Positions 3,932 to 7,073 of a DNA stretch of 13,170 nucleotides are shown here, in pieces. Numbering within the stretch: position 1 is the first letter of the stretch; each line of letters begins with the position of its first letter. The DNA is from a virus (taxonomy: Duplodnaviria > Heunggongvirae > Uroviricota > Caudoviricetes), in the IMG/VR virus record IMGVR_UViG_2526164619_000007, positions 1 to 13,170 of that record; one strand, written 5' to 3'. A program made the position numbers and the translations under genes. Under the pieces are notes generated by a model, which saw only the letters and a program-made list of their open reading frames with translations, made no database searches and had not been told where the DNA came from.

Positions 3932-5323
3932 CACCTTTCCGGTGCCATACCGGGTCGATGCCGAACAGGCAGTGCTGGGGTGCCTGATGGTAAACACCGA
4001 CACTGAGCGTGCGGGGCTGGTGTATTCGATGCTGAAACCGGAGTCGTTTTACGTTGCGGCGCACAGGGTTATTTTCCGTGAAATTCGCGGACTTTTCCGT
4101 GCCGGAAAGCCTACGGACCTGCTCAGCCTTGCGAACGTGATCGAGGCGAAAAAACTGGATGCTGAGACTGGTGGCTTTGCGTACCTTGCTGAAATCAGCA
4201 GGAGTGCCACGCTATCGGCGATGGTTCACTACGCCGGGATTGTGCGGGAAAAATCCATCCAGCGGTACGCGGTGGAAAAATTACATGCGTGCATCGGGAT
4301 CATGAATCAGCCGACAGACACGAGTGCGACAGAACGACTTGGCGCAGTTCAACAGGTCATTGGCACGGTGGCAGAGTATGCCAGAACAGGAAAAACAGGG
4401 GTCTGCGTCCGGTAAGTGATGTGGTTAACGACTGGATTGATGATCTTGAGCGTCGCTTTTCCAGCCCGGAGAACGCAGCGGGTCTGACGCTGGGGATTAG
4501 CTCTCTGGATCGGCTTATGGCCCCCAAACATGTGCTACGTGGTTCGCTGGTAGTGATTGGTGCAAGGCCGAAAATGGGTAAAAGCGCCTCGCTGAACAGG
4601 ATTGTGACGCATTTTGCTCTGAATCATCGTCTGCCCACACTGGTATTCACCCTGGAAATGACAGATCGCAGCCTGGTTGAGCGCATGGTTGCGCAGGAGG
4701 CGAGGGTAAATTCTGAAATTTTTTATGTCGGTGCCAGTGATGACTCGGATATGGCGCGGGCGATGGCGAAAGCCGCAGAACTGGCAGAATCAAACCTGAT
4801 GATTGACAGCACACCAGGGGTAACGCTGGCCCATGTGATCGCTGAATGCCGAAAGGTTAAGCGTCAGCGTGGTGTTGTCGGCCTTGTGGCGATCGATTAC
4901 CTGACGCTGATGAAGGCGGAAGCCGCGGAGCGTCGTGATATTGTTTTCGGGGATATCACAACGGGCTTAAAAAATCTCGCTAAAGAGCTGGACTGCGTGG
5001 TTTTACTTCTGACGCAACTTAACCGAAAACTCGAGGACAGGGCAGATAAACGCCCCACACCAAGCGACAGTCGCGACACCGGGCAGATTGAACAGGATTG
5101 CGATGTGTGGATTGGGTTGTACCGGGATGCTGTCTACAACCGTAACGCAGACTCTCAGCTTATGGAGCTGATTCTCCGTCTGAACAGGGAGGGAGCAACA
5201 GGAACAGCATACGCCCTGATGGATAACGGTTCAGTGACTGATGTCAGCGCAGAGGATGCTGCCAGACGTCTGAGACTTGGTGGTCCGGCACGTAAACCCT
5301 ACGCACAGACGGAGGATTTCTGA
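3921..5323 (+). pseudogene. DnaB-family replicative helicase, frameshifted around 4385-4400
   Basis: N-terminal domain in frame 0 (MTDNTFPVPYRVDAEQAVLGCLM...) stops at 4415. Frame 2 carries Walker A GARPKMGKS, Walker B VAIDYL and QLNR...ADKRP...RDTGQIEQDCD; the shift lies in ggaaaaacagggg. Confidence 0.8.
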
Positions 5324-5484
5324 TGCAGTCACTTTGTGATGTTCTGGAAAAAACGCTGCTTCAGTTCGGGCGGGGGGAAACGGCGGAGCAGAAAACACGA
5401 AACCAGAAGAATCTGGTTCATCTGAGAAAAATGATTGATGCAGCCATGCTGGCTGAAAAGCTGGAAAAACAAAACCGGAGGTAA
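5323..5484 (+). CDS. Small hypothetical protein (53 aa)
   Basis: ATG overlaps the helicase stop (tgATG); [24 protein letters not shown].... Below the length cut-off of the supplied ORF track. Confidence 0.3.
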
Positions 5485-5489
5485 TTTTA

Positions 5490-6251
5490 ATGGAAACCGT
5501 TTTTGACGCACTGAAAGCAATGGGAAAAGCCACATCCACAGAACTTGCTGCGCGACTTGATATCAGTCGTGAAGAAGTGCTGAACGAACTATGGGAACTG
5601 AAAAAGGCTGGTTTTGTTGATAAAAGCGCGTACACCTGGCGTGTGGCTGATAACAACGTTCAGCAGGAACAGCCAGCGCAGGCAGAACTGCCGGAAGAAA
5701 CCACCACAGCAACAGTAGCGAAAATCTCAGAGTGCGATTTAACCGCGACGATTGAACAACGCGGACCACAAACGGCTGATGAGCTGGCTACATTGTTTGG
5801 TACCACATCACGCAAAGTGGCTTCAACGCTGGCAATGGCAATCAGCAAAGGTCGTCTGATTCGCGTAAATCAGGGCGGTAAATTTCGTTACTGCATACCG
5901 GGCGATAATTTACCAGCAGAGCCGAAAGCAGCATCGGTAGCGGAAACTGATGGTAAGGCCTTTCCTCAGCCCGCAGGTGTTGCATTACCAGTACAGGAGG
6001 CTGCAACACAGGAAGATATTAAAACAGAAACGGTGGCGGACATTGTGCAGTCGCTGCCATTGTTCACCGAAACGCGAGCGGATGACCTGGTTTTACCATC
6101 GCTGCATATGGCAAACCGCGAACTGCGTCGGGCGAAAAGTCATGTCCAGAAGTGGGAGCGTGTCTGCGCCGCGCTGCGGGAGCTGAACAAGCACCGGGAT
6201 ATTGTTCGACAGATTACTGATATTTCTCGCCGTGTTGCATCGGAAAAGTGA
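5490..6251 (+). CDS. Uncharacterised prophage protein with two predicted winged-helix-like segments
   Basis: 253-aa ORF with GGAGG 7 nt upstream. Segments [28 protein letters not shown] and [32 protein letters not shown] resemble winged-helix modules; acidic/Q-rich linker between. Confidence 0.7.
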
Positions 6252-6266
6252 TTGCCGGAGGCACCT

Positions 6267-6659
6267 ATGGCAAAAGTATTTACACCAGAAGAGCGGGAAG
6301 AAGTGAAGGCGCGCATTGTGGAACTCGTGCGCCTGAGCGGACGAGAAACTTTTCGACAACTGGCAGATAAAACGGGTGTCAGTAAGACCGCTATTCGTCG
6401 TTTATCTGGTGCGCTTGCGGCCAGTGGTGATGTCTGGCTCTCTGATTGCGGGGTATTTCCATCAGAGCAGGCGTATCGCGTATGGCGTAAGACACCGGAG
6501 AAGGCTGCTGACCCGACACTGATTCGAAAGTTACCTGACGGAGAAATACGCCGCTACGACAGGCGTCAGAACATAATCTGTCGCGAGTGCAGGAAGAGCG
6601 AAGTTATGCAGCGCGTGCTGGCGTTTTATCAGGGGAATTTTCAGGAGGTGGTGCTGTGA
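6267..6659 (+). CDS. Uncharacterised protein with HTH-like segment and C-terminal CxxC
   Basis: 130-aa ORF from the ATG at 6267 (GGAGG 5 nt upstream); ETFRQLADKTGVSKTAIRRLSGAL and ICRECRK motifs. The track's longer form starts at TTG 6252. Confidence 0.65.
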   Translation: MAKVFTPEEREEVKARIVELVRLSGRETFRQLADKTGVSKTAIRRLSGALAASGDVWLSDCGVFPSEQAYRVWRKTPEKAADPTLIRKLPDGEIRRYDRRQNIICRECRKSEVMQRVLAFYQGNFQEVVL

Positions 6660-6716
6660 GTGAAATTAGCTATCAGGCTTCAATTGCCGCTGGCATTCGC
6701 ATCAATGGAGAGGAGC

Positions 6717-7073
6717 ATGGAAATAAAACCAGAAGATGAGTTAAGTAATATTGTTTTATTTCCGGTAAAAGAGGATGACCCGCGTAATCAGGTTAATTTT
6801 CTTTATGAGCCATCGGAAAGACCATACTGTCATCACGCCTCTGTCCGGGTTGACGAAAAAGAGCGCCAGGTCCGATGCAAAATTTGCGGTGCGGTTGTGG
6901 AGCCATTTGACTGGATGCTCTCAGTGGCGAAAAGAGAAACCAGACTGGCAGATGATGTAAGACTATTGAGGCCGGAGGAACGGGAAAGGCGGAAAAATAT
7001 AGAAAAGCTAATTCAGATTGAGCGTAACGCGAAAGCGCGGATACGCAGGGCGACAAAATCCAGAACTGAATAA
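6717..7073 (+). CDS. Uncharacterised protein with putative zinc-ribbon (CHH...CKIC) and basic coiled-coil C-terminus
   Basis: 118-aa ORF from the ATG at 6717 (GGAG upstream). An alternative GTG start at 6660 would give 137 aa. Confidence 0.55.
   Translation: MEIKPEDELSNIVLFPVKEDDPRNQVNFLYEPSERPYCHHASVRVDEKERQVRCKICGAVVEPFDWMLSVAKRETRLADDVRLLRPEERERRKNIEKLIQIERNAKARIRRATKSRTE

Follow-up and report, generated by a model that had tools for sequence, protein, structure and literature searches.

The closest described counterparts of the genes considered here are ren of bacteriophage lambda, which lies between P and ninB, and the ydaW and lygF genes of Rac-type prophages. Ren is reportedly a classical determinant of the resistance of lambda to Rex exclusion. 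The ren gene is transcribed from pR and has been described as "likely involved in DNA replication," and a Ren-Rex protein interaction was found in a two-hybrid assay (bioRxiv 10.1101/2021.04.19.439022); ren is non-essential for plaque formation by lambda (PMC10695390) and was also found to be dispensable for growth (PMC3640518). YdaW of the Rac prophage of Escherichia coli K-12 (b1361) is on a list of predicted E. coli transcription factors (PMC9308461), and an overexpression screen recovered K-12 ydaW among five prophage genes able to block RcaT, the toxin of retron-Sen2 (bioRxiv 10.1101/2020.06.22.160242). In phage Rac-SA53, ydaW is followed by lygF, whose product belongs to DUF977, a family recognized earlier as a winged helix (PMC2686095). 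The nin regions of lambda and P22 also consist of dispensable genes that are arranged as mosaic cassettes between the replication genes and Q. In this study, we analyzed four open reading frames (ORF1 to ORF4, positions 5323–7073) that occupy the same compartment in a 13,170-nucleotide (nt) stretch of viral DNA, hereafter the window, which corresponds to positions 1 to 13,170 of the IMG/VR record IMGVR_UViG_2526164619_000007.

The window is a decayed, defective lambdoid prophage of the Rac/lambda type from Shigella or E. coli, whose cargo includes a partial integrase, two copies of insertion sequence (IS) IS1, an IS3-family element, hok/sok and a tRNA cluster. Its early right operon is on the + strand and runs from a cro-like gene through YdaT/cII-like, O-like and DnaB genes to the accessory genes and then Q. 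The features of this operon that are referred to below are (lengths in amino acids, aa):

2420–2680, + strand, cro-like gene
2664–3086, + strand, YdaT/cII-like gene
3177–3931, + strand, O-like replication initiator gene, frameshifted, which reads as ORFs 3177–3701 and 3689–3931
3894–5323, + strand, DnaB-type replicative helicase gene, frameshifted, which reads as ORFs 3894–4415 and 4289–5323
5323–5484, + strand, ORF1, 53 aa
5490–6251, + strand, ORF2, 253 aa
6267–6659, + strand, ORF3, 130 aa from ATG, with the frame open from TTG 6252
6717–7073, + strand, ORF4, 118 aa from ATG, with the frame open from GTG 6660

ORF2, ORF3 and ORF4 are real genes under purifying selection, which is strong in the case of ORF4, because the median ratios of nonsynonymous to synonymous substitution rates (dN/dS, against relatives with dS > 0.1) were 0.34, 0.21 and 0.05, respectively, and because all three had strong family matches. 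Rather than parts of a single four-component machine, they are independent mosaic cassettes of a delayed-early operon, accompanied by the doubtful ORF1, and we consider it probable that each of them acts alone in conditioning the cell.

The physical arrangement reported by the first-pass annotation, in which four packed, co-directional ORFs of these sizes are separated by short gaps or overlaps, was confirmed. The stop codon of the helicase gene and the start codon of ORF1 overlap in the sequence TGATG, ORF2, ORF3 and ORF4 each begin after a short gap, of 5, 15 and 57 nt, respectively, and all four starts are preceded at 6–9 nt by a Shine-Dalgarno sequence, GGAG(G). The ATG codons at 6267 (ORF3) and 6717 (ORF4) are the starts chosen by the Prokaryotic Genome Annotation Pipeline (PGAP) in the closest genome, that of E. 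coli FDAARGOS_943, and the start at 6717 is also consistent with the N-termini of the ORF4 homologs. No promoter-like or terminator-like site was found on the + strand within 5100–7400, which is compatible with a single transcript, and the proposal of one operon stands in the sense of a single co-directional stretch of the early operon. An Rfam search identified no RNA element inside the four-ORF block; its matches in the window were sok and tRNAs elsewhere.

It should be noted that ORF2, ORF3 (from TTG 6252) and ORF4 (from GTG 6660) are in the same frame, with only single TGA codons between them, and that rare database proteins (three sequences) fuse DUF977 or DUF1627, the family of ORF2, to ORF4. 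Stop-codon readthrough from ORF2 through ORF3 to ORF4 was considered and rejected as chance: ydaW and lygF of Rac-SA53 are in different frames, and the fused database proteins are singletons.

Protein families of ORF2, ORF3 and ORF4

ORF3 matched the entire Pfam model of DUF977 (PF06163; positions 1–134 of 134) with 146.9 bits and E = 4.6e-43, compared to a gathering threshold of 22.1, and it matched phrog_142, "Ren-like exclusion protein," at 4.7e-43. Lambda Ren (J02459, 40280–40570) matched the same PHROG at 1.6e-41, and the label of this PHROG mirrors the Rex-exclusion role of Ren. In pairwise BLASTP, ORF3 and Ren aligned over 90 residues with 27% identity and E = 1e-7. They share an N-terminal winged helix and the C-terminal motif N-x4-ECR-x-S-x2-M-x-RVLA-x-Y, whereas Ren is shorter (96 versus 130 aa). 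Judged from these comparisons, ORF3 is a winged-helix DUF977/LygF protein and a remote but real homolog of lambda Ren. Like ren, ORF3 belongs to the pR operon and comes after the replication genes; in contrast to members of the Ren family that directly follow the replication genes, it is separated from them in the window by ORF1 and the DUF1627 gene ORF2. In each of three inspected loci with ORF3 only, ORF3 came directly after a YdaU-like replication protein of 326–358 aa. Both the helix-turn-helix (HTH) and the CxxC that had been noted in ORF3 at first pass are present in the sequence, but the latter is not conserved and does not mark a conserved metal site: ORF3 has just two cysteines (CREC), while its close homologs have CRESR or FRECR and lambda Ren has FKECR.

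ORF2 matched the full length of Pfam DUF1627 (PF07789; model positions 1–155 of 155) with 327.5 bits and E = 1.4e-98 (gathering threshold, 28.1) and phrog_630 at 2e-130. It is 98% identical to YdaW of K-12 over residues 1–151, after which the K-12 protein diverges because the K-12 gene is truncated; the latter is a remnant without the C-terminal helix. By this alignment, ORF2 is the intact, full-length form of the YdaW of the Rac prophage. The AlphaFold2 (AF2) model of ORF2, whose alignment took in Pantoea and Erwinia relatives, comprises winged helices at residues 1–52 and 81–135 and a 48-residue C-terminal helix at 205–252, all of them confident, and disordered linkers at 56–76 and 140–201. 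Together with the Pfam HTH matches, of which HTH_20 scored 29.0 bits against a cutoff of 27 and the others fell below the curated cutoffs, this model agrees with the two winged-helix-like segments recognized earlier. Short forms of ORF2 in Pantoea and Erwinia retain only the first winged helix and the C-terminal helix. Foldseek retrieved only generic tandem-winged-helix proteins for ORF2, for example ScpB (4e-4), ESCRT-II, SelB and TFIIIC, and sequence searches of the PDB with ORF2, ORF3 and ORF4 yielded nothing useful. The N-terminal winged helix of ORF2 also weakly matched phrog_142 (6e-5); paralogy of ORF2 and ORF3 was tried as an explanation and rejected (BLASTP E = 1.2).

The Rac-type prophages are also the closest match in gene order. 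The ydaW gene of Rac-SA53 is identical in length to ORF2 (253 aa) and is followed by a DUF977 gene, as in the window, and in both Rac and the window the operon setting is after ydaS/ydaT-type genes. The pair follows YdaU/YdaV in Rac, however, and O-like/DnaB genes in the window, and downstream of the pair Rac-SA53 has DUF4406 and Ead where the window has ORF4.

ORF4 matched phrog_1621 at 8.6e-56, with residues 20–136 of the 137-aa extended ORF (6660–7073) aligned to model positions 1–120 of 134. Among 31 Enterobacterales homologs (from Escherichia, Klebsiella, Kluyvera, Salmonella, Serratia, Erwinia, Yersinia, Pluralibacter and Yokenella), the residues C38, H40, C54 and C57 are invariant and the helix LRxEExxRRxNIEKLIQIERNAKARIRR is nearly so. 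The AF2 model consists of a two-strand ribbon and a 55-residue helix (63–117) with a heptad pattern, at a predicted local distance difference test score (pLDDT) of 77. As modeled, ORF4 consists of a predicted zinc ribbon with Cys3-His ligands and, C-terminal to it, a basic coiled-coil helix with a heptad pattern, and the CHH...CKIC motif and long basic helix that the first reading of the sequence had pointed out are both upheld. The best Pfam and Foldseek matches were to the zinc ribbon of TFIIB, with which ORF4 shares the C-x-H...C-x-x-C spacing and the two-strand ribbon. Nevertheless, the score against Zn_Ribbon_TF (PF08271) was 21.2 bits, below the gathering cutoff of 29; the sole Foldseek neighbor, the N-terminal zinc ribbon of TFIIB (1pft), had E = 0.08; ORF4 has one His ligand; and its ribbon is followed by the 55-residue helix rather than by a cyclin-fold core. 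The likeness is thus a resemblance only. Fold searches of the PDB and the viral BFVD gave nothing significant for ORF4, and a sequence-profile search of the PDB found nothing.

A profile search over 1.84 billion representatives placed ORF4 in a family of 1678 clusters (50% identity) at E ≤ 1e-3 and 276 clusters at E ≤ 1e-10. The distant members, some of them GC-rich, have retained NVVxFP, CxH, CxxC, DPFD and ExNAKxR, and none of them matched a Pfam family. No DUF1627 or DUF977 gene lies anywhere near the ORF4 homolog in Kluyvera, Erwinia, Photorhabdus and Pantoea; there, the homolog follows a NinG, RusA, YbcO or HNH gene, often with an ATGA overlap with the preceding stop codon. In 6 of 7 distant contexts it is immediately upstream of a Q antiterminator gene, the Q neighbors belonging to PF06323 or PF06530, with one that also had a sub-threshold match to DUF1133. 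A scan with a distant ORF4 relative retrieved further nin-like contexts with methylases, RusA and a NinB-like ORF, the last assigned from its sequence only. With their placement among NinB, NinG, RusA, YbcO, methylase and HNH genes and right before Q, the ORF4 homologs resemble the nin-region genes of lambda and P22. The Pfam and PHROG searches, however, revealed no sequence homology of the block proteins to a named Nin protein, and a zinc ribbon with a coiled coil is not a described Nin fold.

Two further observations concern ORF4. In six loci, the ORF4 homolog (at about 6001–6390 in most of them) is the last gene before Q. In some proteins of E. coli and E. marmotae (four sequences), the ORF4 protein is joined to an Ead/Ea22-like domain (PF13935), which fits with the frequent adjacency of Ead and ORF4 in IMG/VR loci.

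Distribution and linkage of the block genes

Some part of the 2-kb block was found in 3633 of 5426 complete E. coli genomes, while at least 80% of it was present in 12, and phage records matched separate sub-segments of the block. The full-length ORF1 region, together with the end of the helicase gene and the start of ORF2, was present in 8 of the 5426 genomes. Adjacency was counted in IMG/VR loci anchored on close alleles of ORF2 or ORF3. In these loci, ORF2 was followed by ORF3 in 75 of 76 cases and ORF3 was preceded by ORF2 in 72 of 72. ORF4 came directly after ORF3 in 3 of 78 loci; upstream of ORF2, we found ORF1 in 3 of 75 and a DnaB helicase in 5 of 75. Where ORF4 did not adjoin ORF3, there was usually an insert of DUF4406, with or without Ead, or ORF4 was absent. 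The replication modules upstream of ORF2 and ORF3 varied from YdaU/YdaV to O-like to O-like plus DnaB; ORF3-family genes sit just downstream of replication genes of any type, and ORF2 is an optional insertion between them.

Loci anchored on ORF4 (n = 63), which are unbiased with respect to ORF2 and ORF3, contained both ORF2 and ORF3 in 26 cases, ORF3 only in 32 and ORF2 only in 5. Lambda has ren and lacks the other block genes. The ORF2-ORF3 pair is the strongest linkage in the block; it holds within one allele group and is not obligatory. Distant DUF1627-like genes were not paired with a Ren-like gene, and a candidate for a conserved partner of these genes, a 123-aa upstream neighbor seen in Pantoea with a counterpart in a related metagenomic contig, was rejected because it is not detectably Ren-like. 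The block is not conserved as a unit and its genes occur singly, contrary to the undescribed four-ORF module that the first-pass annotation had put forward.

Translational coupling of the block to the helicase, which had also been proposed, cannot operate in the window, since the helicase gene is frameshifted. Alignment of 3100–5500 with E. coli FDAARGOS_943 (99% identical) located the lesions. Compared to the intact 467-aa helicase gene of that strain, the gene of the window has a 1-bp deletion (a missing C near 4400), and its Pfam DnaB and DnaB_C matches are split over two ORFs. In the O-like gene, a run of A8 in the intact 251-aa gene is shortened to A7 near 3377, with PHROG replication-initiation matches on both pieces. 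The helicase gene is a pseudogene in the window, and the prophage is unable to replicate by itself. Translational coupling, if any, would at most touch ORF1 alone.

The standing of ORF1 itself is doubtful. In its favor as a gene are a GGAGG 7 nt upstream of the start, the overlap with the helicase stop codon, its annotation by PGAP as a hypothetical protein in 6 of the 8 full-length E. coli matches, and an identical protein in NCBI (WP_001190993.1). Searches of Pfam, PHROG, NCBIfam and PADLOC gave no match to ORF1, and tblastn against 50,697 phage records gave none at E ≤ 1. Its DNA was found in 9 of the 5426 complete E. coli genomes, in each case at least 97.6% identical, and in FDAARGOS_943, the closest relative, codon 28 is changed from CAG to an in-frame TAG stop. 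In an O121 strain, homology stops at position 5384 of the window, within ORF1. Most relatives start to match at about 5474 in megablast, just 5′ of ORF2, where the sequence comparison places the mosaic boundary of the DUF1627 module. Therefore ORF1 goes with the helicase module, and it is a doubtful small gene of the 3′ end of that module rather than one of the downstream genes with which it had been grouped. The eight recorded ORF1 protein variants differ at few positions. At codon 42 (5446–5448), the residue is Met, Arg, Lys or Thr, as expected of codons of the form A-N-G; the codon is ATG in the window and AGG in FDAARGOS_943, and the AGG variants create a CCAGG Dcm motif. A mutational hotspot, and not selection, may account for this pattern.

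NCBI already contains identical copies of all four proteins, among them entries from Shigella flexneri K-315 and S. boydii, and the block is a case of ordinary prophage mosaicism whose families already have Pfam or PHROG identifiers. The earlier statement that no function could be recognized was accurate to the extent that none of the four genes has an experimentally established function, and inaccurate in that ORF2, ORF3 and ORF4 belong to catalogued families.

Proposed role and alternative explanations

Upon induction of such a prophage, transcription from pR would cover ORF2, ORF3 and ORF4 together with the replication genes. Their products would be dispensable for lytic growth, and each would work alone, conditioning the infected cell through binding to DNA or to partner proteins. 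By analogy, ORF2 and ORF3 are most likely single-protein modulators of abortive-infection or toxin-type defenses, or of replication. Most plausibly, they would blunt such defenses, a reading adopted because Ren is tied to Rex exclusion and ydaW blocks RcaT. As had been remarked at first pass, this position in lambdoid phages does hold counter-defense genes, and ORF3 is a homolog of Ren. The modeled architecture of ORF4 and its place beside Q suggest binding of nucleic acid or RNA polymerase, and we propose that ORF4 may be a dimeric zinc-ribbon protein of this kind.

Several observations weigh against this interpretation. The tight adjacency of ORF2 and ORF3 could reflect a functional pair instead of mere proximity. 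Lambda Ren is below the reach of the Pfam DUF977 model, and at the identity given above its relationship to ORF3 is remote; the mechanism of Ren has, moreover, also been suggested to lie in replication. The retron result was obtained by overexpression of the truncated K-12 allele of ydaW. PADLOC returned only weak, generic HTH-level matches, the best of them (E = 9e-5) against the HTH portion of CARF proteins, and the zinc binding and dimerization of ORF4 are predictions from the model.

That the four ORFs make up one coupled operon module for anti-defense or host takeover, acting together downstream of the helicase, is very improbable. Tight spacing, a shared strand, good ribosome-binding sites on all four ORFs, the lack of internal promoter or terminator signals and the near-constant adjacency of ORF2 and ORF3 in close-allele loci would all suit such a module, as would the 8 genomes with the full-length ORF1 region plus flanks and the 12 with at least 80% of the block. 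But the helicase is a pseudogene in the window, ORF1 rarely accompanies ORF2 and is interrupted in the nearest relative, ORF4 seldom follows ORF3 directly and is located elsewhere in other genera, about half of the ORF4-anchored loci (32 of 63) have ORF3 without ORF2, and lambda carries ren without the other members. An accessory role of ORF2 and ORF3 in replication, with their winged helices acting at the phage origin, at the initiator or at the helicase-loading step, is also unlikely. Such a role would explain why they always come right after replication genes, whatever the type of module, yet this very indifference to the type of initiator and helicase speaks against a specific partnership. 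A likely involvement in replication has been ascribed to Ren, which, alongside O, interacts with Rex proteins, but ren is dispensable for the growth of lambda. The resemblance of the tandem winged helices of ORF2 to ScpB-type DNA-organizing proteins is generic to winged helices, and ORF2 and ORF3 are intact in the window and identical to those of other strains even though the replication genes are dead.

We assign a low probability to the idea that the block encodes sequence-specific transcription regulators, with MarR/ArsR-like winged helices and a TFIIB-like ribbon, and with the late-gene switch next to Q as the target of ORF4. The weak Pfam and NCBIfam matches to HTH_20, MarR, TrmB, ArsR and Trp repressor point in this direction, but all of the HTH matches except that of ORF2 to HTH_20 are under the curated cutoffs. 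YdaW is among the predicted E. coli transcription factors (PMC9308461), whereas a search of the vicinity gave neither operator-like repeats nor promoters. The position of ORF4 directly before Q in most distant contexts and its sole structural neighbor, the TFIIB ribbon, would also fit, but the TFIIB match is not significant and gene position alone is no proof of regulation. Equally doubtful is a reading in which ORF4 represents a large undescribed family acting at the early-to-late switch or in counter-defense, its placement before unrelated Q genes being functional, with ORF2 and ORF3 as separate counter-defense factors; as modeled, a coiled-coil dimer of ORF4 could then possibly bind RNA polymerase or nucleic acid.

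Under the preferred reading of independent accessory cassettes, the block genes are common, catalogued prophage cargo, parts of which are in two-thirds of complete E. coli genomes, and not a new system. The tie between DUF977/LygF and Ren provides a testable hypothesis for a very common "hypothetical" prophage gene, namely protection from Rex-like abortive infection. The DUF1627 gene of the window offers the intact form of a protein whose truncated K-12 allele blocked a retron toxin. The family of ORF4, which is broad, strongly constrained, without a curated model and recurrent before Q, is a reasonable target for functional screens.

Other features of the window

The remaining features identified in the window are:

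656–1353 and about 9740–10370, two IS1 copies, the second with an altered InsB C-terminus
7221–7907, homolog of QueH-type epoxyqueuosine reductase (Pfam PF02677, 1e-65; phrog_3217, unknown function), a cassette directly after ORF4
7965–8290, hok/sok type I toxin-antitoxin (Rfam sok, 117 bits, 7965–8140; Hok-family ORF, 8078–8290)
10408–10932, DUF1133 Q-like antiterminator gene, abutted by the IS3-family element
10953–11291 and 11318–12157, orfA and orfB of the IS3-family element
12524–12756, phage tRNA cluster with a cat-anticodon tRNA, Arg(tct) and Thr(tgt)

Homology of the window to FDAARGOS_943 ends at about 7159, ahead of the queH-like gene. QueH is a tRNA-modification enzyme, which is odd in the early region of a prophage, and its gene is a few kb from the phage tRNA cluster. 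The order ORF3-ORF4-QueH is also found in Shigella flexneri SFBU1023 and in a second locus labeled as E. coli ECMA0423. The second IS1 copy splits a DUF1364/YbcO-like gene into 9465–9644 and 10376–10531. A second copy of the IS3-family element, with an identical N-terminus, starts at 12857 (12857–13083). With the first copy abutting the Q-like gene, the late-gene switch of the prophage is probably disrupted. In the tRNA cluster, the cat-anticodon tRNA was called Met by ARAGORN and Ile in the annotation of a relative, and a truncated fourth tRNA-like Rfam match is located at 12769–12823, just before the IS copy.

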